Shown: positions 22,472 through 39,606, counted from the first letter of the stretch. The stretch: DNA of 50,545 nt from Myxococcota bacterium (GCA_023150835.1 JAKLKB010000045.1:1-50545), one strand, 5' to 3'. The notes: generated by a model from the letters alone, not told the origin. Numbers and translations are program-made.

Positions 22472-23099
22472 GGCGACGGTCTGTTCTGCCTAATGGCCTT
22501 CTGCTGCGTGCTGTGCTTGTGTGGATTGGGCGGTGGGTGTAGGTGGATGGGGCTTGGAGTACATCGTCTTTGCTCCTTCGGGTTTTGCGCTTTGTTTCGC
22601 GACGGCCTCGCCTTCTTTGGCAAGCGGCCCGCCTGTGCAGCGGTTGGATGCCGCGAAAAAAGACATATGGCCTTCTTTGGCAAGCCACCGCCCTCCCCCT
22701 ACGCAAACCCCCAACGCAAAGTTCATCCACATCTCTGATAGCAACCCCACAAAACACCATCGGGGTAGCTCAAAAAAAACAAAGTGCCTTGTTTATAAAA
22801 TACTGAACATTAGCACATTTATTTATATGCAACAAGCTACGAGATTTTCAGAAAGTGAAAAGTCTTTTGAATTGTTTTTTGCTACCCTCTGACATGGCTT
22901 CTTTGCTCTTGAAGCCTTTGAGCAGACGCAATTAGCGGTCGATTCGGCGTTTTCATCTCGCTCTCGCATGATTTCTTCGCTATCACAGCCTTTCAACGGA
23001 GGTTCTGTGTGCAAAGAAGCGTACAATCGATTATTGTAAAAAGGCAACAAAATTAATTGCGTATCATGTTTGTGGTTTTTTGACGATGGAGAACACTCT

Positions 23100-24785
23100 G
23101 TGAGAAAGATAGTTTTGATAACGTTTATGCTGTGCTTTGTAGAGATGTGGCCTGCCTATCAGGCTCATGCAAAGCGCTACGCTTTGATCATCGGCGTGTC
23201 AACCTACCGCTACCAACCGAACAAAAACAACCTACCAAGCCCTCGTAAAGATGCGATCCGCTTCCAATCGTTGATGAACCGTTTAGGATTCAAAACAAAG
23301 ACACTCTTGGACAGCGAAGCCACGCCCGAAAACATACGTGAACACCTCAAATGGCTCCAACGAATGGGCCAAAATCCTAAACATACACTTGTTTTCTATT
23401 ATTCTGGGCACGGAGCGCAGATCCCCGACACCAACGGAGACGAACCCGACGGAAAAGATGAAACATTGTTTGCTTATGGAGCAGACCCAAAAGATCCAAA
23501 GCAGCACATCGTCGACGACGAACTTGAGGCATTCACACAAAGCGTGCGTGCAAAAATATTTTATGTGTTGGATAGCTGCCACTCTGGAACAGCCAACAAA
23601 TCCCTTCGTGGCGGAAAAAGTAAAAGACTTTACATCTCTGATCAAAACGAAAAAGAACAAGCCGTCGCGATAAAAATAATGACAGCAAAAAAAGGTAGCT
23701 TTTTTAATCGAAAAGGACGAAAGTCCATCTACGGAACAAACGAACTGCTGCTTTCTGCAGCCCGCAGCAACGAACCCGCACAAGATATGGGAAATGGTAG
23801 TTTGCTGACCAACGCGTTGCTGTACGTGCTAGAAAATCAAGGGACAAACATAACATTTCGCCAAATGTACGAGTCCATCAACAAATATGTAGCAGAAGTC
23901 TCCTTAAACATGGAAAAAAAACGATGCAAAGAAGACCATTCTTGCCGATCGCAAATCGAGCAGGTCATCGAGCAGAAAAAACGAGAGGGCTTCATGCTGC
24001 AACACCCCCAAATGCAAGGACTGCGACGATTAAAAGACTCCCCAGTGTTTTTTCAACCGACCGAATCCGCTCCCGAACACAGGACGGGGCTCAGCTCGTA
24101 TCAAAACCTCGACGTCAAAATCCGAGGATTCCGCGAACAAGCCAAAAAAGCTCTCGTGCATATATTGAAAAATTGGGGAGCCAATCCTTCCGACGAGAAA
24201 GCCGACACGCTAATCGAGCACGATGGCAAAGAACTAAGAGTCCTATTCCAAGGGCATCTTTTTGTTTCTCTGCCCGCCACCCAAAAGCATGCAGCGAAGT
24301 TAATGCCTTCTCTAAAACGTGTCATCACAACCCTTTATTGGTTGAAGAACTGGAAACAACTGGGTCCAAATAGTACAGAAATGCGCGTTGAATTGTTGGC
24401 TCGACAAACGAACGCAGGTTGGCAAAAAGCGATCGACGACACCGTTTACATCAAAACCAAAATCCGTATCCGCATCCTATTCCCAGAACACCCTTGCTTT
24501 TTTACCCTTGCTGTTTTGTCTAACCAAGGAACGATGGATATTCTTTTTCCACAAAAAAATCAATCCAATTATATGTCAGGAAAAAGAGAATTTTTATTCC
24601 CTTCCTCAGGGTACAGTCTTCGTGTTCACCCTCCCCAAGGTATGGGTATGATCATGGCTTTCTGTTCGATGAACAACGATCGCCTGATTACGATAAGAAA
24701 GCGCATCCGCAAAAAAGAACTTCTGCCACCTATACCCTTCCCCCCAGGCATCAAGCACGCCCTTTTTTCATATTTCGTAAAATAA
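23100..24785 (+). CDS. Exported caspase-like protease (Peptidase C14) with a C-terminal DUF4384-like domain
   Basis: Signal peptide ending AHA, then YALIIGV, YYSGHG, DEPDGKDET and LDSCHSG. C-terminal ILFP...FPSSGY.L.V.PP.G. GTG start at 23100 after GGAG. Confidence 0.9.
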   Translation: MRKIVLITFMLCFVEMWPAYQAHAKRYALIIGVSTYRYQPNKNNLPSPRKDAIRFQSLMNRLGFKTKTLLDSEATPENIREHLKWLQRMGQNPKHTLVFYYSGHGAQIPDTNGDEPDGKDETLFAYGADPKDPKQHIVDDELEAFTQSVRAKIFYVLDSCHSGTANKSLRGGKSKRLYISDQNEKEQAVAIKIMTAKKGSFFNRKGRKSIYGTNELLLSAARSNEPAQDMGNGSLLTNALLYVLENQGTNITFRQMYESINKYVAEVSLNMEKKRCKEDHSCRSQIEQVIEQKKREGFMLQHPQMQGLRRLKDSPVFFQPTESAPEHRTGLSSYQNLDVKIRGFREQAKKALVHILKNWGANPSDEKADTLIEHDGKELRVLFQGHLFVSLPATQKHAAKLMPSLKRVITTLYWLKNWKQLGPNSTEMRVELLARQTNAGWQKAIDDTVYIKTKIRIRILFPEHPCFFTLAVLSNQGTMDILFPQKNQSNYMSGKREFLFPSSGYSLRVHPPQGMGMIMAFCSMNNDRLITIRKRIRKKELLPPIPFPPGIKHALFSYFVK

Positions 24786-24812
24786 CCCAACGTCAAAAGG
24801 AGCAGATCGATC

Positions 24813-25343
24813 ATGCATATAAAAAAACGTTTCTTGTTCTTAATCATTGGTTTCATTTTCTTTTCTCTGCCCTCCGCTGCCCAATCAAAAATCGTGATGA
24901 ATGGCTTTTTTTACTTCCTTTTGGTTGATGAGCATGGTCAGGATAAAGCTGTTCCGATGAGCTATGCTCTGAAACACGGACAACTCTACAAGATCCTCGT
25001 CAAACCTTGGCAAAAAACGTACTTTCTAGCTTACCAAATTTCACCAAAAGAGATCCAAAGAATTTCCGTATCTTATCGCAAAGACTACGGCGCATTTCAA
25101 TTTCCCGCAGGAGACGCTTACCTCCGCTATAACGCAATCCTATCCACAAACCGTATTTTGTGGATAGGATTGCCAAAAGATCCAACGAGCAGCCAAAAAA
25201 AGACCCCACCGCCGCCCCAACCTCTCAAAGAAGAGGTCACCCCAGCTCAAACGCTGGAAGCTCCAGCAGGAGCAGGAGAATTTAGACGTATGACTTGGCC
25301 TCTCTCGTGGGTGTTTGATTTCCTACAATTAACCAAAAAATGA
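24813..25343 (+). CDS. Small exported protein, possibly a divergent DUF4384-like domain
   Basis: Signal peptide, LKHGQLYKILVKP and FQFP motifs. Lies in the operon between the caspase and DUF4384 genes. Confidence 0.65.
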   Translation: MHIKKRFLFLIIGFIFFSLPSAAQSKIVMNGFFYFLLVDEHGQDKAVPMSYALKHGQLYKILVKPWQKTYFLAYQISPKEIQRISVSYRKDYGAFQFPAGDAYLRYNAILSTNRILWIGLPKDPTSSQKKTPPPPQPLKEEVTPAQTLEAPAGAGEFRRMTWPLSWVFDFLQLTKK

Positions 25344-25414
25344 ATCGTCTGGTGAAAAGAAGCTTCATGCTTTCAGGCGAACCACCGCGCTTCTACACAA
25401 CGAAAGGAGTCTTC

Positions 25415-26158
25415 ATGAGAAAACATGATTTTTGTTTCGCAAGGTTCGTCTTCGGAATATGCTTTGCCGTCGCGCTGAGTGGCTGTTTTGTACAAGTCAA
25501 AGATTTGTTTTCTTCACAAAATAAAACAGTCCTTCGCTTAACAACGCTGCATTATCGCCATAAAAACGATCCATCCCCAAAGCGCCTCCCTTTGTCGCGT
25601 GCTGTTCAACAACGCTACCAAACAACAGAAGCATTGCGGTTTGAGTTCACCGCTAACAAGCAAGGATTCTTATACGTTCTCCATCGCGATCCAAAAGGAC
25701 AATTTCACGCCCTTTACCCGGCAACCGAAGGAAACGAAGCAGACAGCCGAATCAACGCATACGAAACGTTTCGTTTTCCCAAAAAAGCCAAATTTGTATT
25801 CCGCCCGCCAACAGGTGACGAACACCTCTCCTTTGTGTTCGCATCCTCTTCTCTTTCTTTGGAGGATGCACGTGCTTACGCAGATCGTTGGATGCCTTAT
25901 CTCCCCCGTCATACAGCTATCTTGACCGAACCAACTTCCCCACGCTGCCCTGCGGAATATATGTACTTTAGCAATTGTCAAATTTTGTTTAATAAAAAAT
26001 TAAACAAAACTTTGGTGCTTACTCCTGATCAAGAACGAGATTATCAAGTCACAAGCGAATCAGATTTTTTCTCCTTACCTCAAAATATCCCTGAAAACGA
26101 GTACTTGAGCTATACGTCTGTTTCTTTTCGTTTGTCTCACGAACCTATCCGTCAATAG
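25415..26158 (+). CDS. DUF4384-like lipoprotein
   Basis: AAGGAG RBS and LSGC lipobox. E.LRFEFTANKQGFLYVLHRDPKG..LYP and FRPPTGDEHLSFV. Paralog of 31644-32405. Confidence 0.85.
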   Translation: MRKHDFCFARFVFGICFAVALSGCFVQVKDLFSSQNKTVLRLTTLHYRHKNDPSPKRLPLSRAVQQRYQTTEALRFEFTANKQGFLYVLHRDPKGQFHALYPATEGNEADSRINAYETFRFPKKAKFVFRPPTGDEHLSFVFASSSLSLEDARAYADRWMPYLPRHTAILTEPTSPRCPAEYMYFSNCQILFNKKLNKTLVLTPDQERDYQVTSESDFFSLPQNIPENEYLSYTSVSFRLSHEPIRQ

Positions 26159-26199
26159 GATTCGGTTTGTACTGATCTTCACCAAAGAGGAGTTCATCG

Positions 26200-27693
26200 A
26201 TGAATGTTCGATTTTTTCTACTTTTCAGCTTGCTTTTTTTACTCACGCATTCGCCCAATCCTGCCAAAGCCGCTGGGTATGCCGTGTTGGTCGGTGTGGG
26301 TGACTACAAAATGGAAGACATCCGAGATCTTCCAAGCCCTCCTTCTGATGTTGAAAAAATAAAGAAAATGCTAATCAATGTTTATAAATTTCCTGAAGCC
26401 AATATCCGTGCCTTGGTGGATCGAGACGCGACCAAAGCCAACATCGCACGTGCATTGAGGTGGCTCGCGCAAGCCTCAAAAGAAGGAGATTCTTCCGTTT
26501 TTTACTTTTCAGGGCATGGCTCCCGCGTCAAGGATCTCAACGGAGACGAAGAAGACGGTTTTGATGAAACCATCGTTCCTTATGATGCGACCTTCGCACC
26601 ACAATCCCATGTCATCGACGACGAAATTCAAGCATGGCTCTATACAGTTCGCTCAAAAATTACCATCATTTTCGATAGTTGTCATAGCGGAACAGCGTAT
26701 AAAAGCATGAGAAGAAAAGTCGAACGTTTCTCAGGTTTAAAAAGTGGAGAAAAGCTGTCCATCAAATACTGGGAAAACCGAGTCATCTCTTCAACCAAAC
26801 GCGTCGGTCGTTATAGCGATGGGTTTCGCGCTTTGCGTGTTCAAGCACGCCCCAAAGATATACCGCCAGATTGGAACCGATTGTGGGGCATCGACCCAAC
26901 AAAAGACAGAAAACAGATGCCAGAGATGTCTTTCCTTGCGGCCGCTCTCCCTGAACAATACGCGATCGACGCTGGAGGCTCAATCGGCAGTGTATTTACG
27001 CATTTCTTAACGCGATTCGCCGCGAAAAATCCCGCAGCAAACCCAGAGCAGCTCATCCAATCCATCAATAGCGCGATGCCAGAACGCTTCGCGAAGATGA
27101 TGAAGCCCAACACAGAAGGGCAAACCAAAGTCCCTTTTCTCTTTCAGTCTTCCAACAACATCGAACAACACAACCTTTTAGCGGAGCAACGTGTTTGTGA
27201 AGGTACGTTCTGCGTTGTTGCGCAGATCCAAGACAAAAACGGACAAGTGAGAAATCATTTCGCAAAAGACTCCGAGATCCGCATCGTTTTCAAATTGAGC
27301 CAGCCCGGCTATTTGGTGGTGCTGAACCGAGATGCAAAAAAGCAAATGACTTTACTTTATCCCGACACTTACTACGATACTCTCAGCAAACAAAAACCGA
27401 ATGATGTCTATTTCTACGAAGCACAAAAAGATCACCTCTTGCCTCCTGGAGGCGATCAGTCTGACGGATTTATCAAAGTGAGCGGAGAACCCGGCGATAT
27501 CGAAACAGTAGAGATCCTTGCCGCCCCTCAACAAAAATCCCTACAAAAATTGATTCAAATGAAATCCATGAATTCAGATGGTCGCAAAAGCATAACGCAG
27601 CAGCTTGTATCTCAACACCTCCAAAAGCTAATGGTGCAAAAGCGAAACAATGGCGTCTATATCCGCCTCGCTTTTAAAACAACAGCACCTTGA
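26200..27693 (+). CDS. Exported caspase-like protease (C14) with a C-terminal DUF4384-like domain
   Basis: Signal peptide ending AKA, then YFSGHG, DEEDGFDET and FDSCHSG. C-terminal GYLVVLNRD...LLYP...GEPGDIETV. Confidence 0.92.
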   Translation: MNVRFFLLFSLLFLLTHSPNPAKAAGYAVLVGVGDYKMEDIRDLPSPPSDVEKIKKMLINVYKFPEANIRALVDRDATKANIARALRWLAQASKEGDSSVFYFSGHGSRVKDLNGDEEDGFDETIVPYDATFAPQSHVIDDEIQAWLYTVRSKITIIFDSCHSGTAYKSMRRKVERFSGLKSGEKLSIKYWENRVISSTKRVGRYSDGFRALRVQARPKDIPPDWNRLWGIDPTKDRKQMPEMSFLAAALPEQYAIDAGGSIGSVFTHFLTRFAAKNPAANPEQLIQSINSAMPERFAKMMKPNTEGQTKVPFLFQSSNNIEQHNLLAEQRVCEGTFCVVAQIQDKNGQVRNHFAKDSEIRIVFKLSQPGYLVVLNRDAKKQMTLLYPDTYYDTLSKQKPNDVYFYEAQKDHLLPPGGDQSDGFIKVSGEPGDIETVEILAAPQQKSLQKLIQMKSMNSDGRKSITQQLVSQHLQKLMVQKRNNGVYIRLAFKTTAP

Positions 27694-27768
27694 TGTTGTA
27701 AAATTGACCGAAATACCCCTCAAGCCGCGCCGCTCAGCGCCTTTCCTCTTGATTGCTCCGATGACAGG

Positions 27769-28704
27769 ATGACCCAAATGAATCAAACTTTTTTTTATTC
27801 TGCCAAAATTTTTCTTTTTACACTCGTTTACTCATCAAATAGCTTCGCAATTGATTGTAAAAAAGAGCTTAATAAATTCAAGAAAACATCTGGGCTTTCA
27901 AAAAACCAAATCTATGCTTCCTTTTTGAAACTATCTCATTTTTTACTCAAAAACGAAGCATGCCGTGACTATCCATCCGCCATGCAAGTGGCGCACTGGG
28001 CAAAAGAATTGAACGACGTCGACACCGAATTAAATTTTTTGACCATGGCGCGTCGGTATGCCCCTTCCACCCCCACCAAGCCCCCTCCGTCCAAAAAATA
28101 CGATGGCATTCGTGGTCTAATGCCTCCCAAAAAACAAGAAAAACCCGACCCTTTTACTGAAAGCCAACAGAAAGTGCAACAAAAAATCCAGCGATGGTTA
28201 TCACAAAGGTTTCCTCCGCAGGTGGCTGCTTACCGAGAAATGAGATTGGTTGTGGTACGTCGCGTTTTAAAACAAGCCAAAACCCGCACTGTCGGTTGCT
28301 CTCCGAAAAAGAAGATGCTTCAACAGATCTTGTCGCAACAGAAAACACAACAAAACCTTCTTTTGCCCATGAAGATATTGTTTAAGCTGAACAAAGCTCA
28401 TATCGATGAAAATAGCCGCACTCTTTTGGAGATCCTAGCCAAAGAGCTTCGATCGATCCTTCCGCTCTCTGAGTGCATCCTCGTTCTTGGACATACAGAC
28501 CCTTCTGGAATACCCGCTTACAACGATTGGCTGTCAACACGACGCGCACAACGCGTTATTCAGTTTTTTCACCAACACCAACTCTCTTCGGGTTTCTTTT
28601 TGGCGCATGGAATGGGTTCTTCTATGCCAAAGAAAAGCAGCTCAAACAAAGTGGATCGATTCGCCAGTCGTCGTGTTGAATTCGCTGTCTTTCTCAAACG
28701 ATAG
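27769..28704 (+). CDS. OmpA-C (peptidoglycan-binding) domain protein
   Basis: Signal peptide, then ILFKLNKAHI, GHTDPSG..YNDWLSTRRA, GMG and RRVEF. Confidence 0.88.
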   Translation: MTQMNQTFFYSAKIFLFTLVYSSNSFAIDCKKELNKFKKTSGLSKNQIYASFLKLSHFLLKNEACRDYPSAMQVAHWAKELNDVDTELNFLTMARRYAPSTPTKPPPSKKYDGIRGLMPPKKQEKPDPFTESQQKVQQKIQRWLSQRFPPQVAAYREMRLVVVRRVLKQAKTRTVGCSPKKKMLQQILSQQKTQQNLLLPMKILFKLNKAHIDENSRTLLEILAKELRSILPLSECILVLGHTDPSGIPAYNDWLSTRRAQRVIQFFHQHQLSSGFFLAHGMGSSMPKKSSSNKVDRFASRRVEFAVFLKR

Positions 28705-28893
28705 CCTTGATAGTACGTGAGGAGATGTACAGTACATTTACACATCGATTTTGATGTACCGCAAACCGAGTCAAAAATGGATCAAATTAGACACGAAACA
28801 ACTCTCATTTTTCAAGCTTTATCAGTCCATCTATCCGAGCGGCTTTCGCGGTCGGATCTTCGTTTCGCTTTCCCCCTGTCAGGAGATTGATCG

Positions 28894-30810
28894 ATGCGAC
28901 GCTTTTATACTATGCGCTGGGCGTTTTGGTGCCTGCTTGTTGGTTGGGGAGGAATTCAAAAAAGCCATTCATCCAAAACGGTCCCCTCCAAAACGTATGC
29001 TTTTTTAGTTGGAGTGGACGTTTATAAAAACGCGTGGAAAGCGTTAGATTACGCAGTAGATGATATGGAAGAATTACGTGATTCTCTACGAAAAGATGGA
29101 CGTATCGATCAAGATAATATCGTTTTTCTAATGAATCATTCTGCGACCCGAGAAAATGTTCTACAATCATTTGACACGCTATGCCGTCGATTGCAGCCTA
29201 CAGATCTGTTGTTGTTTGCCTTCGCAGGTCACGCTTTGATGGATGAGCACGCAGGGTATCTCGTCTTACACGACACGGCACTACAAAACTTGCGCGCTTC
29301 TAGCTTGCGAAAAAGTGATCTTGTTTGCTCTCGTGTCAAAAAACGAGTCCTGTTTTTAGACACGTTTCGCTCGAAAAAAAAGAGAAGAGTACCTCTTTGG
29401 CGCGATGGCGTCCATGCTTCGCTCTTCGCAGAGACCAACCAAGTGGTCCTAGCACCCAGCCTATCCGAGCAAGAGCGGGGAAAACCTATCGGGGCGAGTT
29501 TTCGGCCCTTTATCTTCCATATCACCAAAGGGTTACGTGGAGAGGCCGATATGAACCGCGACGGCGTAGTCAGCTTGCTTGAGCTATGGGGACACATCAC
29601 CGCGCAGATCAAAGAAGCCACAGGATTGTCGGCAGAAGAGCAACGTCTTGCCACGTTGGCGGGTGAGTGGTCCGAATGGTTTCCACTAACTTACCCGAAA
29701 ACGTTGTTGCTTTTGGGGCGTATTCCTTCTCATCCACAAAGATCAAAAACAAATTGGTTGGCCGTCAAAAGCATCCCATCCGGAGCAAGTGTTTACGTAA
29801 ACGATAAGTTTTTTGGAAAAACTCCTTTTTTTCAAAAGATTTCACACGGAAAACAAAATATTATACTTCAAAAAGAAGGTTTTCACGCGTGGAAGAAAAC
29901 AATTTTTACATCGTCGAATGTAGAAAATATTCGATTGGTTCAGTTAAAAAAAATGGGAGAACCATCCCCGCAAGAAAACCCTACCAATACCGCCGAGAAC
30001 GAAAGGCCGGAGGTTGGCCGAGGCCGCCCAGCAGGCTTCCGCAAACCCTTGAACGCTTGGCCTAGCGTTTCTATCCGATGGATTCCACCAGGCACATTCC
30101 GAATGGGTTCCCCAACCCACGAAGAAGGCCGCTATAAAAACGAAGGTCCACCCCGAGAGATCCGAATCACTCACGGTTTTTGGATGTGGGAAACAGAAGT
30201 AACGCAAAGCCAGTTCATTGCCTTGATGGGCTATAATCCCTCGTTTTTCAAGCGTTGTGGCCTAAAATGCCCTGTGGAACGAGTCACATGGCACAACGCT
30301 GCGATGTTTGCAAATCGTGTTTCTTTACTAGAAAAAAGAGAAACTTGTTTTCGATGCAAAAACAATCGTTGCCGCTTAAAATCTCCTTTTCTTGGAAGCG
30401 GCGTTTATTCTCGTTGCAAGGGGTGGCGATTGCCGACTGAATCAGAATGGGAATACGCAGCAAGAGCAGGGCAAACCACTTCACGCTACGCAGAAAACTG
30501 GAATTCTATCGCGTGGTGCAAAGAAAACAGCCAAAACAAAACCTCTCCTGTGGGGGCAAAGCGACCGAACCCTTGGGGATTACACGATATGTTGGGGAAT
30601 GTTTGGGAGTGGACATTGGACGCTTGGATACCTTATCGAGAGCGAACGCTTTCTGTTGACCCGCTGTACGTAAGCGGTAGCAAGTACGTGTCACGCGGAG
30701 GCGCATGGTCTCATTCCAAACGCGCCGCACGCTTCGCCACGCGAGCGCGTGGCAGCGGCCACGGCTACGGTTGGTTTTTAGGCTTCCGTCTCGTGCGCTC
30801 TGCTCCATAA
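28894..30810 (+). CDS. Inactive caspase-like domain + PEGA + FGE-sulfatase (CLec-fold) domain protein
   Basis: FAFAGHA and FLDTFRS (catalytic Cys missing), ADMNRDGVVSLLEL. PEGA motif SIPSGASVYVNDKFFGKTP. FGE motifs FRMGSP, RLPTESEWEYAARAG, GNVWEW and RGG.W...GFRLVR. Confidence 0.92.
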   Translation: MRRFYTMRWAFWCLLVGWGGIQKSHSSKTVPSKTYAFLVGVDVYKNAWKALDYAVDDMEELRDSLRKDGRIDQDNIVFLMNHSATRENVLQSFDTLCRRLQPTDLLLFAFAGHALMDEHAGYLVLHDTALQNLRASSLRKSDLVCSRVKKRVLFLDTFRSKKKRRVPLWRDGVHASLFAETNQVVLAPSLSEQERGKPIGASFRPFIFHITKGLRGEADMNRDGVVSLLELWGHITAQIKEATGLSAEEQRLATLAGEWSEWFPLTYPKTLLLLGRIPSHPQRSKTNWLAVKSIPSGASVYVNDKFFGKTPFFQKISHGKQNIILQKEGFHAWKKTIFTSSNVENIRLVQLKKMGEPSPQENPTNTAENERPEVGRGRPAGFRKPLNAWPSVSIRWIPPGTFRMGSPTHEEGRYKNEGPPREIRITHGFWMWETEVTQSQFIALMGYNPSFFKRCGLKCPVERVTWHNAAMFANRVSLLEKRETCFRCKNNRCRLKSPFLGSGVYSRCKGWRLPTESEWEYAARAGQTTSRYAENWNSIAWCKENSQNKTSPVGAKRPNPWGLHDMLGNVWEWTLDAWIPYRERTLSVDPLYVSGSKYVSRGGAWSHSKRAARFATRARGSGHGYGWFLGFRLVRSAP

Positions 30811-31077
30811 AACATCTAATCGATAAAAGATATAATTCGTAGTCCAATTTCTCCAAGATCCATCCCCTCCTATCCCCCCCCACAGTCTGTTCAAAAAAGA
30901 ATATTTTTGCGGATACTCTCCTCAAAGGTGTCTAGAAAAAGGTTTGTTCTTTTGATAGCAGAGGTCGATTGAAAAGGTGAGCAGTCGAAGCTTGAAGATC
31001 ACGGATGCTGCGCCTTCTTTTCATCACCAGTTCAATCGTCCCGTTCTATGAGCAGCGACCGAGTTGGGTTTTGCTGG

Positions 31078-31200
31078 ATGGGGCGCTGCCCCAAACTCCG
31101 CAAGGGAGCGCGGCTCCCTTGACCCCGTACGGATGGGACGAGCAGCGTTTTCAAAACCAACAGATCTACCGCTCGAACGCTTGCGAACACGGCTTTTTTG
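31078..31200 (+). repeat. Family A dispersed repeat
   Basis: GCAAGGGAGCGCGGCTCCCTTGACCCCGTA core, as at 47619. Confidence 0.8.
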
Positions 31201-31263
31201 GGCTAGGGTTCGCTCCGATATGTGTACACTTCCAAAAGATATCAATGTGTTAGACACCCTCTT

Positions 31264-31377
31264 ATACGAGATCCGCCCGTTGTGTGATCGTAAGGATGCA
31301 GGAGCAGACCCTGTGCCTTCCCAATAATAGGGCGTCTACGCACAATCCTTTGTGTACACATCACTCGAAGATCGTAT
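31264..31377 (+). mobile_element. Family B MITE/REP-like element
   Basis: Aligns end to end with 15602-15716 (ATACGAGATCCGCCCGTTG...ATCGTAT). Confidence 0.75.
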
Positions 31378-31563
31378 GAAATGGTGAAAAGACGAAAAAA
31401 GAAAGAAAGGTAAGAGTGATCGATAAAGAAAGAAGATGATGCGGTACGTCGATATCGGGCAAACAAAGAGTGGGGTCCCCCGCTCGTGGCAGCCCGAGAA
31501 TGGAACGGCCACAGAAGAGCCGCTGTCGGCACACTTCTCTTCAGTTTCAGATAATCGATGAAC

Positions 31564-31660
31564 GAAGATGATGATTACTGGTGAGCGAAGATGATGATTA
31601 CTGGTGAGCGAAGATGATGATTACTGGTGAGCGAAGATGATGATTACTGGTGAGCGAAGA
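31564..31660 (+). repeat. Tandem repeat, 23 bp x4 (GAAGATGATGATTACTGGTGAGC)
   Basis: Perfect units start at 31564, 31587, 31610 and 31633. The last unit contains the stop codon of the adjacent gene. Confidence 0.97.
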
Positions 31661-32405
31661 AGAAACGAACAAACAAGACACTGACTTGTTGTGGCTTGAG
31701 ATTTTGCCTTGGAAGCACGATGTAGTCGGCATCTTGCGCAGGTTCGTGATCGGCTTCCATCACCAAGGTTTTCCCGTGGCCTTTTGCGTTCATGATGATC
31801 TGAACCGCCAAGTTTGTATTTTCCTTTGGGCCTTGGTTGGTTTCTACGTTTCGGATGATATCGCTTCGGCGTTGCTCGCTTACTGCAGGAAAACCATAAT
31901 CATTGGCACAGGAAAAAAGCTGTTCTTTAAATAGTTTTTTATCCGTCACAACAAAAGAAAGATGTTCAAGTCCTCGAGGAGGACGAAACGTGAATTTCGC
32001 ACCGTGAGGGAAATGGAAAGCTTTCATTGCTTTGATGCGATTTTTTTGGTTCTTTTTGTTGGGAGTGTTGGCGGCAGGATAAAGGACAGACATATCTCCC
32101 TTCGGATCCCGATGCAAAACATAGAGATACCCGCTGTGATTGCTTGTCACTTCAAAAGTCACCTGCTCTCCACTTTTGTAATAGCGCCGGGTTGCTACAG
32201 AAAGCGGCATTTTGGTCTTGGAAACTGTTCCGTCGGGATTGTTTGTGTACACCACCACTTTGATTTCCAAGCCTTTTTTTCGTTTGGTTTGATCAGGCTC
32301 CAACACCAACGTTTTGAGGGAAGGTTTGGCCAAGGCTTGTCCTGTCAGAGCGACGCAGAAAACGGTCATCCATCCGACGAACATGGAGAAAACATACTTT
32401 TTCAT
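31644..32405 (-). CDS. Exported DUF4384-like protein
   Basis: GAGGTG RBS and signal peptide ending ALA. YKSGEQVTFEVTSNHSGYLYVLHRDPKG...LYP and FRPPRGLEHLSFV. Confidence 0.87.
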   Translation of the reverse strand: MKKYVFSMFVGWMTVFCVALTGQALAKPSLKTLVLEPDQTKRKKGLEIKVVVYTNNPDGTVSKTKMPLSVATRRYYKSGEQVTFEVTSNHSGYLYVLHRDPKGDMSVLYPAANTPNKKNQKNRIKAMKAFHFPHGAKFTFRPPRGLEHLSFVVTDKKLFKEQLFSCANDYGFPAVSEQRRSDIIRNVETNQGPKENTNLAVQIIMNAKGHGKTLVMEADHEPAQDADYIVLPRQNLKPQQVSVLFVRFFFAHQ

Positions 32406-32530
32406 GAGATCACCTCTTTGCTGAGTAAAGGATGTCCTTTTCGAACATCCGACATTGCGATGAAAACACCGATCGTTGAAGCCGTTGGTTCCGTTTTGAG
32501 TTGTTTTTTTCATGGTCGTATAATTTTCTT

Positions 32531-34045
32531 CTACATTCCTCCCTCAAAAAGCAATGATGATTTCTCTTTTTGATGGACGCCTTGCGCCATGCTTGGCCGC
32601 TCCAAAAAAGATCGAGACGCGCTGCCTTGTGCACGACTTCGTGCTGGATTCGTAAAGTACAAGATCAAGCCTGTGACAACCAACACGCCCCCCACCGCAT
32701 ACAGAGCGTAAGCCGCGTTGCTCGCTGTATTGATTGTGCTAAATTGGTTTCCAAAAACCCCTGTAGCTGCCATGATATGAACTGTTGCTCCAACCACAAC
32801 GATCCCCCCCCCCAAGCCCATCGCTGCGTGAGGCCATTTCCCAAAATCAACCGAACCCTCAAAATCAAAATCGATCCCTTGGGAGTCGTCTTCCGAGAGC
32901 GCAACGTATTTTTCTTTTTTAACATTACCACCAATTCCTACGATACGATACCGTCCCGCAGGAAGACGCACTTCTTGCCGCCGAACTCCCTTGTAGCTTG
33001 CAAAGCTTTCGTATCGACCATTCTTTTTTTCGCGGTACACCTCGATCATCGCATCGTCTTTGTTTGAGGTCAGATTGATCGACGCCTGCCGAAGTGCCGC
33101 ACCTCCGGGAAAAGAAAGCGGGACGTTTCCAACAATCGTCCCGTGAGTCACCACAGTTTGCTCATGCCCTTTGTGACGCCGAGCAAGCTCCGAAACACGC
33201 GTGCCGAGATAAGCTTGTAACTCTTGCACCGTCACAACACCGTCTTTCGGCATTTTATCCGCTTTTCCTTTCAATGCTTCGATCAGTGCGTACGTAAACG
33301 CGCCATGCCCCAGCTTGGGTATCTCTACGCTGTACTGCTCTTGTGTCGAAGAAGCGATGGTCACGCGTCCTCTTCCCGTCAAATTCAGGCTTTTTAGGTC
33401 AATGCCTTTGCTTCCCCCTCGATATCCGTCTCTATTTTTTTCTTCTTTTTCATCTCTCATTTTTTTCAATATTTTATCATTCAAAGTATTTCTAAAATCT
33501 TTTTTTTCTGTAAATTTTGCAGAGTCCGCCCCGCTGTTGCAAGCGTCGATCAACAAAGTCACCGTGATCGAAGAGTCTATTCTCGGAGGGCTAACCCAAA
33601 GCCGAAGTTCTTCAAGATCGATCCCCTGCTCTAATTTTAGCTCTCCATCGTTTCGACCGAACGTTGACTCGTACGTCACCCAATAAGAGACGCGCTTTGC
33701 CGCCCAGCCATGCCCAGAAAAGTAGATCACCACGCTATCACCAGCTTTTGCAACAGAAGGCAGCCATGTAAATACCGCCGCTTTGATTTTGGCTTCTGTA
33801 GCCTCGCTGTTGATTAACATCCTGATGTTTTCTTTTTTGACTTTGCCTTCGTTTGTGAGAGCAGAGTGCAACGCTTTGGTATCCGCTACTGCGTAGCGCA
33901 GATCAGGGATATACTCGTTGTTTTTGTAATCATCGATCCCGATCAATACAGCGTACACGCTGGCTGTTGTTTGAGCATACGCAGCAGTTGCTTGAGAAAA
34001 CAAGCAAAGCATCAGAAAGCACAATGTATGGCAGATCTTATTCAT
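32531..34045 (-). CDS. Exported caspase-like protease (C14) with a PEGA/Ig-like domain and a C-terminal hydrophobic hairpin
   Basis: Signal peptide ending AYA, then YAVLIGIDDY, YFSGHG, IDACNSG and GHGAFTYALIEALKGKAD. Two hydrophobic segments near the C-terminus. Confidence 0.92.
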   Translation of the reverse strand: MNKICHTLCFLMLCLFSQATAAYAQTTASVYAVLIGIDDYKNNEYIPDLRYAVADTKALHSALTNEGKVKKENIRMLINSEATEAKIKAAVFTWLPSVAKAGDSVVIYFSGHGWAAKRVSYWVTYESTFGRNDGELKLEQGIDLEELRLWVSPPRIDSSITVTLLIDACNSGADSAKFTEKKDFRNTLNDKILKKMRDEKEEKNRDGYRGGSKGIDLKSLNLTGRGRVTIASSTQEQYSVEIPKLGHGAFTYALIEALKGKADKMPKDGVVTVQELQAYLGTRVSELARRHKGHEQTVVTHGTIVGNVPLSFPGGAALRQASINLTSNKDDAMIEVYREKKNGRYESFASYKGVRRQEVRLPAGRYRIVGIGGNVKKEKYVALSEDDSQGIDFDFEGSVDFGKWPHAAMGLGGGIVVVGATVHIMAATGVFGNQFSTINTASNAAYALYAVGGVLVVTGLILYFTNPARSRAQGSASRSFLERPSMAQGVHQKEKSSLLFEGGM

Positions 34046-34193
34046 TTTTTTACCTTTCCAAGAAGCTTATTTGTTGTGTATCTACGCATCAGTCTTTGTC
34101 GGCACAGGCCGATCAAAGCAGTGAAGCACAAGACATCGAAACATCCGAGCGATTCGAGGCTGGATTCGCCGCCTTTTCAATCGACCTCCACCG

Positions 34194-37100
34194 TTATTGG
34201 CAAATTCCGTTGACACAGCTTTGTCCGCTACCGCAAGAACGCCCACAAGATCCGCAATTCAGGTTGTTGGTTTGGATATCGACACAGGTTGCCAGTCCGG
34301 GGCAAGGCGTCGAATTTGTCGTCGAACACGGGTTGGGCAAGAACCACAAAAAAGTAGCGCCTCGTTGTCCGCCTGTTTCGTAAATTCGCCCGGGAATATT
34401 TGAAAACACACCATTCGCATAAAAGCTGCCTAGCGCGTACATATTGCCTTGGCTGTCACTATCCACTCTGTAAATCTCGTCGCGCACTCCTTGGGCGTTG
34501 AGAGTCAAAGCGCCACCTCGAACTGTTTCTGCTCGCACAATTTTTCCAGCAGGATCAAGTTGAAGGAAGAAAGGATCTGCACCGTTGGCGTCAGGAACAG
34601 ATACCCCCAGATTGATTTTTCCGACATAGGCTCCCCCAGCATAAAGGCCATTTTGAGGAGCAGGAAAAAGAGAGTACGCGATCTCATCGCCTTCTTGGGC
34701 TGGAGGGGTATAACACCACTGACGAGTGAGGTTCGATAGCGAAAATTGACACACAAACAAGTCCGTTTGGGCCGTATGAGAAGGAAGGCTCGTTAGCTGA
34801 CCCGTAAAATTTCCACTCACAAATAGAGCAGCTCCCTGCAAAAGAGTTCCGTAGGTGTTAATGACCGTGCTCGCATTCGTACTGAACTGTGGAGAGATAT
34901 CATGAAGCGATTGCATCACAAGATTCTTGTCAAATTTAGCGACAAACACACCACGCTGAAGGGAAGACGTGATTTTTTTACTTCCATCAGAATCAGACAT
35001 ACTGTCTCCTTGATGGAACAGACCGATAGCAAATAAATTATCGCTTTGATCGATCTTGAGATGCTGGATGCCGCCCCCTGTTTCTTTGGGCTGCCATACC
35101 TTCACGACACTTCCTTGGTTGTTGATCTTCGCAAGATACGTTCTTCCCCCCAGGGCCAAGAGCGAAGAACCTGTTGCCCCTGTAAACGTGGCGTCGCCAT
35201 TCGATCGCGCCCCCCAAACGAAGATCTCGTGCTGGCTATTTACGACAAATCCTCTGGCATATATCGCTTCGGCAGCATCGGGATTTTTTGCATGAAGCCA
35301 AACGTTGGTGGTGTTGCCTGTTGCCATATCGAGGGACGCGATAACGAGACCACGGTTGCCAGCGGAGTAGGTCTTGCTCTGGAGCACAAAGTCGCCACGG
35401 TATAAGAAAAAAATGTAGAGTGACTGTTTATTGGGACCCCATCCAAGCGTACACTCAAAGAGAGAGGTCGTCGCAGCCCATTGTTTTACCCACAGCATCT
35501 TTCTATTTTTGTCTAATTTCACGACAAGACAAGCTGTACCGGTTGGATCGTTTGCGTTTCCAAATGAGAAGGTCTGATTTTCGACTTGAACAGAGCCATG
35601 AAAGCGCGTGGATATATAGAAGTGATCGGATGAATCGATGAGCATGGTGGGAACGATGGCGCTACCCGCTTGGGTGGGTGGTTCTTTGATGGTGTACACC
35701 CACGGACATCCTTCATCGATTTGTCCGTTGCAATTGTTATCCAGATTGTCCTGACAGATTTCTTTTGTTTCTTTGCATTTGCAAGATCCGTTATCGCATT
35801 TTTCGAGCGTCAAATCGCATTTGTTGCCGCAAGCTCCGCAATGTTGGATATCCGTCTGAATTTCTTTGCAACTGCTTCCACAAGCGAGCTGCGTGCTTGG
35901 GCAGCTTATTTTGCAGACACCCTCGCTGCACAGGGGTTGTCCCGCTGGGCAAACATTCCCACAGCTACCGCAATGTTTGTCGTTGGATCGAGTGTCCACG
36001 CAACTTCCCGAACATTCAGTTTGCCCTGCGAGCGGGCATTGACAAAGCCCCCCGCGACAAGTCTGATCTTGGCGGCAAGAAACACCGCAGCCACCACAAT
36101 GAGTTAGGCTTTCTTGAGCATTGACACAAGTCCCGCTACAGGCCAGATAACCCGACGGACACAAACAGACGCCTTCTTGGCATTTGCTCCCGAACGGGCA
36201 TTTTTGACTGCATTGACCGCAATGATCGGGATCTTTGCTTACATTTTTGCACGAGCCACCACACTCGACCTCCCCCAAACCACATTGACAAAGCCCCGCA
36301 CGACAGACCTGTTCTTGGCGACAAGCAACACCACACGCTCCGCAATTGGTGACGCTGTCCTGGATGCTTGCACAAACACCACTACAGGAAAGAAACCCAT
36401 TGTCGCACTGACATTCACTGTTTTTGCAATTGCTATTTGCTCCGCATTGCTTACCACATTGGCCGCAGTTGGCTGGGTCGGCTACCGTATTTTTACAAGA
36501 TCCATCGCAATCTTTTTGTCCGGGAGGGCATTGACATTCACCGTTGTTGCAGCTTTGGTCGGAGCGGCAAACCTTACCGCAAGCTCCGCAGTGTTCACGT
36601 CTGTTTTGTGTGTCGACGCACGAACCACCACAATTTTCTTCGCCCACTTTACAAGCACATTGGCCCTCCAAGCATTGGAGTCCTTTTGTTTGGTCGCAGG
36701 CGTTGTTGCAATCTCCGCAGTGCTGGGGATTGTCTCGGATATTGACGCAAGTGTCGCCGCAGTACTTTTGTCCCGGATCGCAACTGCAAGCTCCTTCGAT
36801 GCACTTTTGCCCTGTAAGGCAGACTTTGCCACATTCACCGCAGTGGTTTGCATCTTTTCGCAAGTTTGTACACGAACTGCCGCATTGGGTGGGAGTCTCT
36901 GGCTTTTTGTCGCACTCAAGGTTCGGGAGCCAGTTGCCGCCCGTACAAACCTCACCCCCCCGCGCCAAGGGGCGATCACCGCCCTGTTCGTTGTCGATCA
37001 GACCATCGCAGTCGTCATCTTGCCCGTTGCAAACCTCGGCTTTTCCATTTTCGCAGGGATAACAAACAAGAGCGGAACCCGTCGAGACGTTGACGCAGAA

Positions 37101-37394
37101 GCCGTTTTTTACGTTTTGAATGAAGCAGTTCGCGTTTTTCTCATCGCAGGTCGGCAGGCAGGCTTTTTTTGAACCTTCATCCGAAACCCCAAAGAGGCGG
37201 CGATCCGTACGAGGGATCGTAATACACGATTGATTGTCGCCACACTTTCCGTCTGTGTCGCACAACACAGGCTTCCATTCGGGTTGCGTGCAACCTTGCT
37301 GCAAGCCGAGAAAGAGCAGCGATAGCAACAAAAACGCATCTTGAAGTCGCGACGAGCGCTTGGGGGGGGATATCTGTTTGAAACGTTGAAGCAT
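34194..37394 (-). CDS. Cys-rich lipoprotein with ~10 C..C..D..HCG.C repeats, metal-binding DxDC motifs and an SBBP-like beta-propeller
   Basis: Lipobox LQQGC, EVCNGQDDDCDGLID, repeated HCG/NCG units, and DLFV/DPFF...DSQGNMY propeller blades. Confidence 0.85.
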   Translation of the reverse strand: MLQRFKQISPPKRSSRLQDAFLLLSLLFLGLQQGCTQPEWKPVLCDTDGKCGDNQSCITIPRTDRRLFGVSDEGSKKACLPTCDEKNANCFIQNVKNGFCVNVSTGSALVCYPCENGKAEVCNGQDDDCDGLIDNEQGGDRPLARGGEVCTGGNWLPNLECDKKPETPTQCGSSCTNLRKDANHCGECGKVCLTGQKCIEGACSCDPGQKYCGDTCVNIRDNPQHCGDCNNACDQTKGLQCLEGQCACKVGEENCGGSCVDTQNRREHCGACGKVCRSDQSCNNGECQCPPGQKDCDGSCKNTVADPANCGQCGKQCGANSNCKNSECQCDNGFLSCSGVCASIQDSVTNCGACGVACRQEQVCRAGLCQCGLGEVECGGSCKNVSKDPDHCGQCSQKCPFGSKCQEGVCLCPSGYLACSGTCVNAQESLTHCGGCGVSCRQDQTCRGGLCQCPLAGQTECSGSCVDTRSNDKHCGSCGNVCPAGQPLCSEGVCKISCPSTQLACGSSCKEIQTDIQHCGACGNKCDLTLEKCDNGSCKCKETKEICQDNLDNNCNGQIDEGCPWVYTIKEPPTQAGSAIVPTMLIDSSDHFYISTRFHGSVQVENQTFSFGNANDPTGTACLVVKLDKNRKMLWVKQWAATTSLFECTLGWGPNKQSLYIFFLYRGDFVLQSKTYSAGNRGLVIASLDMATGNTTNVWLHAKNPDAAEAIYARGFVVNSQHEIFVWGARSNGDATFTGATGSSLLALGGRTYLAKINNQGSVVKVWQPKETGGGIQHLKIDQSDNLFAIGLFHQGDSMSDSDGSKKITSSLQRGVFVAKFDKNLVMQSLHDISPQFSTNASTVINTYGTLLQGAALFVSGNFTGQLTSLPSHTAQTDLFVCQFSLSNLTRQWCYTPPAQEGDEIAYSLFPAPQNGLYAGGAYVGKINLGVSVPDANGADPFFLQLDPAGKIVRAETVRGGALTLNAQGVRDEIYRVDSDSQGNMYALGSFYANGVFSNIPGRIYETGGQRGATFLWFLPNPCSTTNSTPCPGLATCVDIQTNNLNCGSCGRSCGSGQSCVNGICQ

Positions 37395-37527
37395 TTGAAA
37401 CCTCGGCCTATTTGGGGGGGTTACGTTTCCGTAGCAACGAAGAAACGCACCCTCCTTAATACCTTAGCGGCTTCTTGTTGAAGGCGTTTTTCAGAAAGTG
37501 AAAAACTGAGAGAGAACGTCGGCATCG

Positions 37528-39333: not shown

Positions 39334-39392
39334 ACTGCTTTCCTCGATTGATGGACGCGTGACGATGCGAGCGATGAACCAACGCAAAACTG

Positions 39393-39606
39393 TTAGGGTC
39401 CGAGGCATGGGTAAAGTTGTTTGAAATAATAATCGCTCACTTCTTGCTTTCTAGCCTAAATCAGCAGGTTCGAGTCCCGCACTGACAAAGTTGTTTGAAA
39501 TAATAATCGCTTACTTCTTGCTCTCTAGCCCAAATCAGCATCCTCGAGGTGAACATTGACAAAGTTGTTTGAAAAAATAATCGCTTACTTCTTGCTTTCT
39601 CGGGCC
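39393..39606 (-). repeat. Three 74-bp-period imperfect repeats encoding alternative C-termini of the adjacent gene
   Basis: AAAGTTGTTTGAAA.AATAATCGCT.ACTTCTTGCT.TCT occurs at 39413, 39487 and 39561. Confidence 0.9.

Follow-up and report, generated by a model that had tools for sequence, protein, structure and literature searches.

The window, a stretch of 50,545 nucleotides from a Myxococcota bacterium (GCA_023150835.1, JAKLKB010000045.1), contains an island of eight intact open reading frames, g1 to g6 on the plus strand and g7 and g8 on the minus strand. The source organism is an uncultured wastewater bacterium. The features, with their predicted content, are as follows:

g1, 23100..24785, plus strand: signal peptide, metacaspase-type C14 domain with intact dyad, DUF4384 at the C-terminus
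g2, 24813..25343, plus strand: small exported protein with a Pro-rich tail
g3, 25415..26158 (frame opens at 25340), plus strand: DUF4384 lipoprotein with lipobox LSGC
g4, 26200..27693, plus strand: signal peptide, metacaspase-type C14 domain with intact dyad, DUF4384
g5, 27769..28704, plus strand: exported protein; N-terminal half without assignment, C-terminal OmpA-C-like domain of peptidoglycan-binding type
g6, 28894..30810, plus strand: signal peptide, pseudo-caspase, PEGA, FGE-sulfatase/C-type-lectin-fold domain
Repeat element, two copies, 31051..31410, no strand: multi-copy intergenic element in the convergent spacer
g7, 31644..32405 (frame opens at 32513), minus strand: exported stand-alone DUF4384 protein
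g8, 32531..34045, minus strand: signal peptide, C14 domain with intact dyad, beta-rich domain, pair of hydrophobic segments at the C-terminus
Low-GC block, 22750..42100, no strand: seen in the GC profile and per-gene GC and GC3; contains the island and extends past it

For g1 we preferred the GTG at 23100, within a frame that opens at a TTG at 23070, and for g7 the ATG at 32405 over the frame opening. Domain content was assessed with Pfam at the curated cut-offs of 21.4 bits for Peptidase_C14 (PF00656), 27 for DUF4384 (PF14326), 27.2 for OmpA (PF00691) and 20.8 for PEGA. Peptidase_C14 was above cut-off in g1 (86.7 bits), g4 (87.8), g8 (55.7) and g6 (26.3), and DUF4384 in g1 (30.2), g3 (40.6), g4 (30.9) and g7 (53.6). 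OmpA scored 45.0 bits in g5 (residues 204-298), and g6 carried FGE-sulfatase (143 bits) and PEGA (40.9 bits). The island thus holds four C14 and four DUF4384 domains, a single OmpA-C, and PEGA plus FGE-sulfatase in one protein, as listed in a preliminary description of this DNA, save for a PEGA domain in g8. By similarity, the genes include the paralog pairs g1/g4, g3/g7 and g6/g8.

The composition of the island is atypical. Per-gene GC is 0.43-0.48 within it and 0.57-0.58 in the flanking genes, and of the genome's 1176 10-kb intervals (mean GC 0.552, sd 0.015) only two are poorer in GC than the one at 25 kb (0.466). The onset of the AT-rich block near 22.75 kb was as first described, but low GC (0.47-0.51) is not confined to the island and persists to about 42.1 kb. 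Beyond the island, the block encodes Stig1-like Cys-rich proteins and a Ser/Thr kinase (Pfam), and two more Cys-rich proteins lie on its minus strand. Both GC boundaries are bridged by contigs of two other studies (runs X3 and X4), with the island in the same context. From its composition, the island is probably accessory, horizontally acquired DNA. The repeat element at 31051..31410 stands out by read depth in each of the four runs (107-232x, its surroundings about 7x) and draws up to 438 blastn HSPs per position within its own genome; its copies lie in the convergent spacer, outside the protease system.

All eight products begin with a hydrophobic, export-signal-like segment, weakest in g5 and g6, as called by a heuristic on the N-terminal hydrophobic segment; with the lipobox of g3, this agrees with the earlier assignment of signal or lipoprotein peptides to every gene. 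Export also appears to be a family trait. Among the 120 relatives of g4 listed, 87 fuse C14 to DUF4384 and 81 of these have signal-like N-termini, compared with none of the 10 eukaryote-named metacaspases in the same list. Together with the C-terminal membrane anchor of g8 and the OmpA-C domain of g5, these features make the proposed extracytoplasmic (envelope) location of the predicted products well supported. The accompanying statement that characterised bacterial caspase-like systems are cytoplasmic did not hold, as the periplasmic caspase-superfamily domain of DdvA from Myxococcus xanthus has been structurally characterised (PMC11506125).

Three of the four C14 domains (g1, g4 and g8) keep both the catalytic His and Cys, as had been noted, while g6 keeps the His and has Phe at the Cys position. 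The p20 parts of g1 and g4 are 42% identical. The best solved relative of g4 is the yeast metacaspase Yca1 (4f6o, E 4.2e-19), with GDExDGxDE...DSCHSG aligned. Both g1 and g4 carry the metacaspase acidic motif (GDExDGxDE...P.D), which g6 and g8 lack, so the g8 domain is not of this type. In Arg/Lys-specific metacaspases this motif follows the catalytic His and lines both the S1 pocket and the calcium site. Across 79 C14+DUF4384 proteins, H106, D112, E117, D119, D122, E123, D140, D159 and C161 are invariant, and g1 and g4 are accordingly classed as metacaspase-type p20 proteins with a predicted Arg/Lys specificity. The AF2 model of g4 has a pLDDT of 84.4 and a pTM of 0.72; confidence is low in the loops at 161-180, 201-220 and 311-330. 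For g8, which had been described as caspase-PEGA-TM, the C14 domain and two C-terminal hydrophobic segments (407-425 and 444-462 by hydropathy) stand, whereas PEGA was unmatched in Pfam at E<=0.1, though C14+PEGA occurs in the three nearest relatives that are not identical to g8 (P0153-P0155, 36-37% identity).

The stand-alone DUF4384 proteins g3 and g7 are paralogs (33% identical over 255 residues) and have a signal peptide or lipobox without a cytoplasmic zinc-finger domain. The AF2 model of g7 is a beta-sandwich (pLDDT 80.9), for which no solved fold matched at E<=0.001. Two conserved basic motifs flank the sandwich, both present in g3 and located at K31 and K212 in g7, with Arg/Lys at the two positions in 45 and 50 of 54 sequences; a regular expression for them matched none of the anti-sigma-type DUF4384 proteins of this genome. 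The second motif falls in a low-confidence segment of the g7 model. The small protein g2 has no Pfam match. Its hhalign alignment to the DUF4384 protein profile is weak (E 0.045, probability 1.2%) and in the expected register, and an Atlas feature search placed 25 of 30 matches in the set of a cluster with DUF4384 in 16% of its members (score 0.91), so that g2 is possibly a divergent DUF4384-like protein.

The OmpA-C-like domain of g5 is predicted to be of the peptidoglycan-binding type, and g5 reached the cut-off of no NCBIfam equivalog. The C-terminal domain of g6 belongs, by fold family, to the FGE-sulfatase/C-type-lectin group; among solved structures it matches the DGR variable protein TvpA best. 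A true FGE enzyme was rejected, with both Cys of the C-H-D-S-Y-C stretch missing in the alignment to FGE 6muj; the FGE/CLec domain reported earlier is therefore retained as a supported, non-catalytic, lectin-like module. A DGR target was also rejected because the genome holds no template-repeat copy of the g6 3' end (blastn found only paralogs of 61-86% identity), and none of the genome's four RVT_1 (reverse transcriptase) matches lies on the island contig. The catalytic Cys lost from g6 is kept in its sister-genus counterpart and in a paralog on contig C182.

The recurrent element in other genomes is the pairing of DUF4384 with C14. In six genomes of this phylum, 34 of 40 DUF4384 matches had a C14 match on the same strand within 1.5 kb, with DUF4384 directly upstream in 30, and in 61 genomes from the phylum to which a Myxococcota MAG belongs, adjacency was seen for at least 31 of 47, 30 of them upstream. 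With the 87 listed fusions, these counts bear out the earlier pairing and support a real functional link between the two families, as judged from gene order and architecture. Most of the linked pairs sit in triads of an ECF sigma factor, an anti-sigma-like DUF4384 protein and a caspase, of which this genome has six. The g3 to g4 order, in which the gene of a small exported DUF4384 protein lies directly upstream of one for a caspase-DUF4384 protein, recurs in three metagenome loci (L046, L049 and L097), two of which have no sigma match. DUF4384 also occurs in Thermus, Deinococcus and Thermotoga control genomes without a C14 match, and is fused to kinases and trypsin-like domains (relatives of g4 listed; PMC6426788; bioRxiv 10.1101/2025.01.12.632604).

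The full set of eight genes is less conserved. One sister-genus genome has a cluster of caspase-DUF4384, OmpA-C, caspase and caspase-PEGA-FGE genes, in which C2-like proteins take the place of the stand-alone DUF4384 proteins. Its caspase-DUF4384 is 36% identical to g4 over 476 residues, its OmpA gene is 36% identical to g5 over the OmpA-C part, and its dyad-intact caspase-PEGA-FGE is 30% identical to g6 over 528 residues. The proposed link of OmpA-C to the caspases is in keeping with this cluster and with the four of the 120 listed g4 relatives that fuse OmpA, C14 and DUF4384. No close g4 ortholog was found in two same-genus genomes (86% and 64% complete; best E 1e-6). Near g4-like caspases, single-sequence queries found OmpA in 0 of 27 genome loci and 1 of 80 metagenome loci, and FGE in 1 of 27 and 0 of 80. 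The expected co-occurrence thus holds as partial synteny in one sister-genus genome, the only place where the set was found, in part, and does not extend to wide conservation of all eight genes.

Several known systems resemble parts of the island. Like the ECF sigma triads, which dominate the linked DUF4384-C14 loci in two phylum-rank groups, it combines C14 with DUF4384 in tight linkage at an exported location. However, the island is not itself such a triad: no sigma domain was found in the eight or flanking genes (Pfam), none of the genome's 35 Sigma70_r2 matches lies on its contig (C203), and no transmembrane anti-sigma-type DUF4384 protein stands beside the caspases. Its DUF4384 domains are instead fused behind a protease or placed on lipoprotein or secreted proteins. 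Two of the island proteases belong to the metacaspase type, and an OmpA-C protein and a lectin-bearing pseudo-caspase are added. The architecture of g1 and g4 is that of an exported family whose annotation goes no further than "caspase family protein" or "DUF4384 domain-containing protein," but here two such genes stand in an operon-like row with OmpA-C and caspase-PEGA-FGE, a combination not found outside one sister genus in the 27 genome and 80 metagenome loci.

A 2012 survey of metacaspases (Asplund-Samuelsson et al., PMC3501461) had already catalogued FGE fusions (33 of 671 sequences), operons with OmpA (14) or with further C14 domains (23), metacaspase operons that contain sigma factors, and 46 sequences whose N-terminal helix was read as a probable signal peptide. 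The parts of the island that it covers (exported metacaspases, FGE fusions and OmpA operon partners) are therefore not new, and g6 resembles its metacaspase-FGE architecture, except for the loss of the catalytic Cys. DUF4384 partners and the island's gene set are not described in the available text of that survey. DdvA/DdvS of M. xanthus likewise has a periplasmic caspase-superfamily domain for which regulated proteolysis is proposed, but as described in the available text (PMC11506125) DdvA is a TPR-CHAT protein fused to the anti-sigma factor itself, without DUF4384, and its proteolysis is putative; the island proteases are C14, not CHAT, and lack a sigma pair. Craspase (Csx29-Csx30, type III-E CRISPR) pairs a caspase-superfamily protease with a beta-rich partner, as proposed here, and cuts Csx30 within its beta-rich C-terminal domain, of which DUF4384 is one of seven groups; it differs in being cytoplasmic and RNA-guided, with a TPR-CHAT protease and a sigma-factor output (bioRxiv 10.1101/2022.08.17.504292). 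Finally, type I metacaspases such as Yca1 share the conserved dyad and acidic motif with g4, but the eukaryotic enzymes reside in the cytosol and have neither a signal peptide nor DUF4384.

Our preferred reading, to which we assign a probability somewhat below one half (about 0.45), is that the eight genes make up an accessory envelope-protease cluster, probably acquired horizontally and built on the recurrent unit of a DUF4384 partner and an exported C14 peptidase, and that the island is a sigma-factor-less, multi-protease relative of the widespread ECF sigma/anti-sigma-DUF4384/exported-caspase operons. Under this reading, g1 and g4 would act in the periplasm as Arg/Lys-specific metacaspase-type enzymes, and their cognate module, for docking or as substrate, would be the DUF4384 beta-sandwich, which g1 and g4 carry in cis and which the lipoprotein g3, g7 and perhaps g2 would supply in trans. 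The basic motifs flanking the sandwich in the stand-alone proteins would be candidate cleavage or recognition sites; they could also be structural strands. The g5 protein may tie the set to peptidoglycan, g8 would be an inner-membrane-tethered protease paired with g7, and g6 a catalytically dead paralog whose lectin-like domain would bind a ligand and regulate or scaffold the active enzymes. As there is no sigma factor, the output would be envelope proteolysis rather than transcription. Against this reading, DUF4384 is not tied to C14 everywhere, and the full gene set is not conserved. The preliminary description's proteolytic cascade, its homotypic DUF4384 adaptors and its suggested roles in envelope surveillance, kin conflict or predation are taken here as hypothetical.

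The poor conservation of the gene set would suit a collection of independent exported degradative proteases, used for feeding or to lyse prey or neighbours, clustered by tandem duplication and transfer and without mutual cleavage, in which DUF4384, PEGA and FGE-like domains are substrate- or surface-binding modules. The three paralog pairs suggest duplication, the lectin-like and PEGA domains suit surface binding, and the large genome encodes numerous exported Cys-rich proteins and has 11 C14 genes and 20 or more FGE-like genes. Nevertheless, the strictly oriented DUF4384-C14 adjacency includes anti-sigma-type proteins that cannot be digestive and so points to a specific protease-partner relation, while a dead paralog (g6) and a membrane-tethered protease (g8) would be odd in bulk digestion; we regard this explanation as possible but rather doubtful. 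It is also conceivable, though unlikely, that the island is an immune or conflict system of the envelope, in which the lectin-like domain of g6 senses a phage or competitor molecule in the periplasm and switches on the caspases to damage the cell's own envelope, as an abortive response, or the invader. For FGE-sulfatase ("FGS") domains joined to caspases, a role as lectin-fold modules that sense invaders has been proposed (PMC8195603), DdvA connects a periplasmic caspase-like domain to phage defence (PMC11506125), and both the mobile character suggested by the composition and the TvpA match would fit. However, the published FGS systems are intracellular, g6 lacks a template repeat, no defence genes were identified among the flanking genes (Pfam), and PADLOC-DB 2.0 returned only the generic "caspase" and ZorB (MotB/OmpA-type) models and no known defence system.

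A further explanation, which we consider quite improbable, gives the island no pathway of its own: its stand-alone and fused DUF4384 domains would be decoys or modulators that tune the genome's six sigma-linked switches. Those triads do use both domain families, and the island and its contig carry no sigma match. On the other hand, the island proteins show only a distant relationship to those of the triads: neither g3 nor g7 has a blastp match at E<=1e-3 to the anti-sigma-type proteins, g1 and g4 are of a different (metacaspase) type from the triad caspases, and two of the three g3-g4-like metagenome pairs stand without a sigma match.

Returning to the envelope-protease cluster, what is new is an arrangement of known parts, each from a widespread family without experimental characterisation, and the island represents a sigma-less, multi-protease variant among known kinds and not a new kind of system. 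A bolder version, which we hold to be improbable, is that DUF4384 is the dedicated "latch and substrate" domain of exported bacterial metacaspases, with the flanking basic motifs as cleavage sites, and that the island encodes a transcription-independent envelope cascade in which the lectin-bearing dead caspase g6 detects a glycan or protein that is foreign or stems from damage, and frees g1, g4 and g8 from their DUF4384 partners g2, g3 and g7 at the peptidoglycan, where g5 would be bound. If this were true, the island would do in the periplasm what caspase activation platforms do elsewhere.

The island consists of eight intact open reading frames (ORFs) in two converging rows, g1 to g6 on the plus strand and g7 and g8 on the minus strand.

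Genes of the island, with Pfam matches and their bit scores
23100-24785, plus strand: g1, Peptidase_C14 (86.7) and DUF4384 (30.2)
24813-25343, plus strand: g2, no Pfam family
25415-26158, plus strand: g3, DUF4384 (40.6)
26200-27693, plus strand: g4, C14 (87.8) and DUF4384 (30.9)
27769-28704, plus strand: g5, OmpA (45)
28894-30810, plus strand: g6, FGE-sulfatase (143), PEGA (40.9) and C14 (26.3)
31644-32405, minus strand: g7, DUF4384 (53.6)
32531-34045, minus strand: g8, C14 (55.7)

Every score listed exceeds Pfam's cut-off, and Pfam agrees almost completely with the domains named in a preliminary description made from the sequence alone. The exception is the PEGA domain of g8, which has no Pfam match at E ≤ 0.1, though C14 and PEGA occur together in its three closest non-identical relatives. 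The C-terminus of g8 contains two hydrophobic segments, and this part of the protein does not match the DUF4384 profile. For g2, comparison with DUF4384 gave an hhalign E of 0.045 at a probability of 1.2%, plus an Atlas feature lead. No NCBIfam model reaches its cut-off against the island, and promoter-like or terminator-like sites show no excess over shuffled expectation. When the C14 proteins of this genome and of a sister-genus cluster are all aligned, g1, g4, and g8 keep the catalytic His and Cys, bearing out the earlier count of three domains with the dyad, and g6 keeps the His but has Phe in place of the Cys.

The best-supported reading is that the island is a horizontally acquired, sigma-less assembly of units in the envelope, each made of a DUF4384 partner and an exported C14 peptidase. 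DUF4384 would then be the cognate docking or substrate module of the protease, g5 might tether the system to peptidoglycan, and g6 could be a dead, ligand-binding regulator. Precedents exist in DdvA, for which site-1-type proteolysis has been proposed (PMC11506125), and in Craspase, where Csx30 is cut inside a beta-rich C-terminal domain. The putative proteolytic cascade and homotypic adaptors suggested in the preliminary description are compatible with the data.

All eight products, taken from their most plausible start codons, start with an n-region that is basic or short, then a hydrophobic stretch, and then a cleavage-type site of small residues, with a lipobox (LSGC) in g3, as expected from the signal or lipoprotein peptides first ascribed to them; these calls come from our own heuristic rather than SignalP and are least certain for g5 and g6. 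By the same heuristic, a signal-like N-terminus is present in 81 of the 87 listed g4 relatives that combine C14 with DUF4384, in 13 of the 23 listed bacterial relatives that lack DUF4384, and in none of the 10 eukaryote-named metacaspases among the listed relatives. The earlier interpretation holds in part: g5, with its OmpA-C domain, and g8, with its C-terminal anchor, are consistent with an envelope location, and the FGE domain of g6 appears lectin-like and non-catalytic. Our literature search found no extracytoplasmic bacterial C14 peptidase that has been studied biochemically, and the matches listed for metacaspase, periplasm, and bacteria included no characterised periplasmic C14 enzyme.

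The best solved relative of g4 is the yeast metacaspase Yca1 (E 4.2e-19), in an alignment spanning the dyad and the acidic GDExDGxDE motif; g1 is of the same metacaspase type, and g6 and g8 are not. At E ≤ 1e-8, a word-indexed search retrieved 262 g4 relatives, publicly named just "caspase family protein" or "DUF4384 domain-containing protein." C14 and DUF4384 co-occur in 87 of the 120 listed, four of which also carry OmpA and four a trypsin domain. A 2012 survey of prokaryotic metacaspases recorded N-terminal helices, probably signal peptides, in 46 sequences, FGE-sulfatase fusions in 33 of 671, OmpA in 14 operons, and further C14 domains in 23 operons (PMC3501461). In the AlphaFold2 model of g4 (pLDDT 84.4, pTM 0.72), the caspase core and the DUF4384 sandwich are predicted with confidence; confidence is low for the linker between them and for Arg/Lys-rich loops downstream of the catalytic Cys.

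The FGE domain of g6 finds its best solved match in TvpA, a variable protein of a diversity-generating retroelement (DGR) in Treponema denticola (E 2.8e-19); PvdO, PorK/GldK, and true FGEs rank next. Aligned to an FGE enzyme, it lacks both catalytic cysteines, and the genome holds no template-repeat copy of the g6 3' end. On this comparison, the domain is best read as a probable non-enzymatic binding domain of lectin fold. Such a role has been proposed for "FGS" domains joined to caspases (PMC8195603); the systems published there are intracellular, but the proposed role agrees with our reading of g6. The genome also contains at least 20 FGE-like paralogs by blastn. On another of its contigs, C63 (~10.7-18.5 kb), an RVT_1 match at 18039-18452 lies near FGE-sulfatase-like paralogs at 16429-16632 and 10697-10907, an arrangement that may be a diversity-generating retroelement.

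Full-text searching of the literature that mentions DUF4384 found no assigned function, and the domain is also recorded as a kinase C-terminal domain (PMC6426788; bioRxiv 10.1101/2025.01.12.632604). This genome has 11 C14 and 8 DUF4384 matches, and all eight of the latter adjoin C14. Beyond the island, six loci are triads of an ECF sigma factor, a DUF4384 protein, and an exported caspase, in which the middle protein carries DUF4384 at its C-terminus, preceded by a Pro-rich linker, a single transmembrane segment, and optionally an HxxxCxxC motif. We found no literature on operons of ECF, anti-sigma, and Peptidase_C14 genes, which supplementary tables of ECF groups or domain architectures may mention. 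Across the six species genomes that make up the whole phylum-rank group, 34 of 40 DUF4384 matches have C14 within 1.5 kb on the same strand; 30 of them are directly upstream, and the remaining four are g1, g4, g7, and the sister-genus ortholog of g4. For 61 genomes sampled from the phylum to which a Myxococcota MAG belongs, the same placement holds for at least 31 of 47 matches, 30 upstream, a count that is a lower bound. Gene neighbourhoods were sampled in these 6 + 61 genomes and in 107 loci with g4-like caspases. The linkage is not universal, since C14 was absent from the matches in three control genomes with DUF4384.

Three other explanations compete with the assembly of partnered units: that these are unlinked digestive proteases, that they form an envelope immune sensor, or that they act as decoys for the sigma-linked triads. 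We favor the partnered units in the envelope as the best-supported of these readings.

In the AlphaFold2 model of g7 (pLDDT 80.9), a beta-sandwich comes first, with helices and additional strands after it. Foldseek matched the DUF4384 fold to nothing in the PDB at E ≤ 0.001; the weak match of highest probability was the Ig-like C-terminal sandwich of RhoGDI2 (probability 0.89, TM 0.43), and the fold search gives no functional clue. Full-length relatives of g7 are rare, at 8 of 154 matches at E ≤ 1e-10 in an exhaustive profile-free search. An alignment of 54 stand-alone DUF4384 proteins revealed two conserved motifs outside the Pfam domain, flanking the sandwich. The first, A-[RK]-x-L-[FY], lies directly past the export signal and is basic in 45 of 54 (K31 in g7). 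The second, [ST]-[RK]-[DG]-[LI]-[VI]-h-E, lies about 40 residues from the C-terminus, is basic in 50 of 54 (K212 in g7), and falls within a low-confidence segment of the g7 model. Both are carried by g3 and g7, and neither is described in the literature we found mentioning DUF4384. Since metacaspases cleave after Arg or Lys, these motifs are candidate recognition or cleavage sites. A complex prediction with alignments for g8 (residues 26-400) and g7 (27-253) scored 0.02 and 0.00 relative to a mark of 0.32, which counts neither way on binding.

The island genes have a GC content of 0.43 to 0.48 (GC3 0.40 to 0.49), compared with 0.57 to 0.58 (GC3 0.61 to 0.65) for flanking genes and 0.53 to 0.58 for the genome's seven other C14 genes. 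Of 1176 windows of 10 kb across the genome, the one at 25 kb ranks third from the bottom in GC, about six standard deviations under the mean. The profile places the onset near 22.75 kb, as previously noticed, and a milder low-GC stretch (0.47 to 0.51) runs on to ~42.1 kb, so the compositional island is larger than first described. This remainder (34194-42077, minus strand) contains genes for a Stig1-like Cys-rich repeat protein of 1066 residues, a Ser/Thr kinase whose C-terminal half has no assigned domain, and two further Cys-rich exported proteins; because these genes are co-directional with g8 and g7, a longer transcription unit may end in g8-g7. The block is abutted on the left by a gene (18782-22471, minus strand) for a 1229-residue protein with DUF924, an FSH1-type serine hydrolase, and leucine-rich repeats.

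Among marks of mobility, we found no tRNA in the window, no integrase, and no convincing repeat common to both edges (best 21/23 nt); there was no match to Rfam families. No contig skipped the island with a reliable joint; in the single 14-kb skip, the shorter flank measures just 20 nt. Near-identical contigs for all 30 bins from 22.3 to 42.3 kb, bridging both GC boundaries, come from runs of two further studies that either bear the label activated sludge or have none, and the island is therefore stably part of this organism's genome across several samples. No RNA data set was listed as holding the island. The probable source sample also has two libraries with the label metatranscriptomic that are probably of DNA; these gave only short identical contigs over parts of g3, g4, g6, and g7 and so provide no evidence of expression. 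The convergent g6-g7 spacer holds two copies of a multi-copy intergenic repeat (31051-31410). Across four runs the depth there is 107-232x, compared with ~7x in the surrounding sequence, and blastn against the same genome gives as many as 438 HSPs per position. A 23-nt tandem repeat (31559-31660; 4.4 copies, 98% matches) extends into the last g7 codons, and one contig, from a run of the probable source sample, is 46 nt, or two units, shorter there. A 74-nt tandem repeat (39413-39600, 2.5 copies) separates the Ser/Thr kinase gene from the next Cys-rich protein gene.

A sister-genus genome has a 7.8-kb contig (L038), likewise low in GC (0.48), with six genes. Its caspase-PEGA-FGE protein has an intact dyad and is 30% identical to g6 over 528 residues, its caspase-DUF4384 protein is 36% identical to g4 over 476 residues, and its OmpA-C protein is 36% identical to g5 over the domain. 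The others encode a truncated caspase, most similar to g4 and g1, an FGE protein that is exported and ends in a C2-like tail, and a C2-like lipoprotein. The last two (L038 1921-3615 and 5551-6285) have in common a C2-like C-terminal domain (Pfam C2, E 4.4e-4, under the cut-off) and occupy the places of the island's stand-alone DUF4384 proteins. Two same-genus genomes (86% and 64% complete) yielded no close g4 ortholog.

Among 27 genome loci with g4-like caspases, three have caspase-DUF4384 fusions, seven have at least two C14 ORFs, one has C14-FGE, and none matches the OmpA-C part of g5; 80 metagenome loci yielded six fusions, one OmpA, and no FGE. A search of genome contigs confirmed no g5 relatives, and an OmpA family search of five genomes holding g4-like loci gave matches at the genome level only. 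In three metagenome loci (L046, L049, and L097), a small DUF4384 gene lies 55-93 nt upstream of the fusion gene, like g3 before g4, with a signal peptide in L046 and L049; L049 has a further stand-alone DUF4384 gene elsewhere, with a lipobox. The conserved units are therefore pairs with an occasional OmpA link; the eight-gene set is not conserved as a whole and is partial in one sister genus.

The island as a whole is as the preliminary description observed it. Its components and pairwise links, with putative roles, are already known from sequence surveys; the combination of several proteases, no sigma factor, OmpA-C, and a pseudo-caspase with a lectin-like domain is a new variant of narrow distribution. 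Because the organism is uncultured and the island only partly conserved, the island is useful in itself chiefly as a compact collection of candidate enzyme-partner pairs. Together with the triads of the same genome, it narrows the question to whether two conserved basic motifs of DUF4384 proteins are sites where exported enzymes of the metacaspase type recognise or cut them. A positive answer would account for a gene pair found repeatedly in many phyla and would provide the first defined envelope substrates for bacterial caspase homologues.
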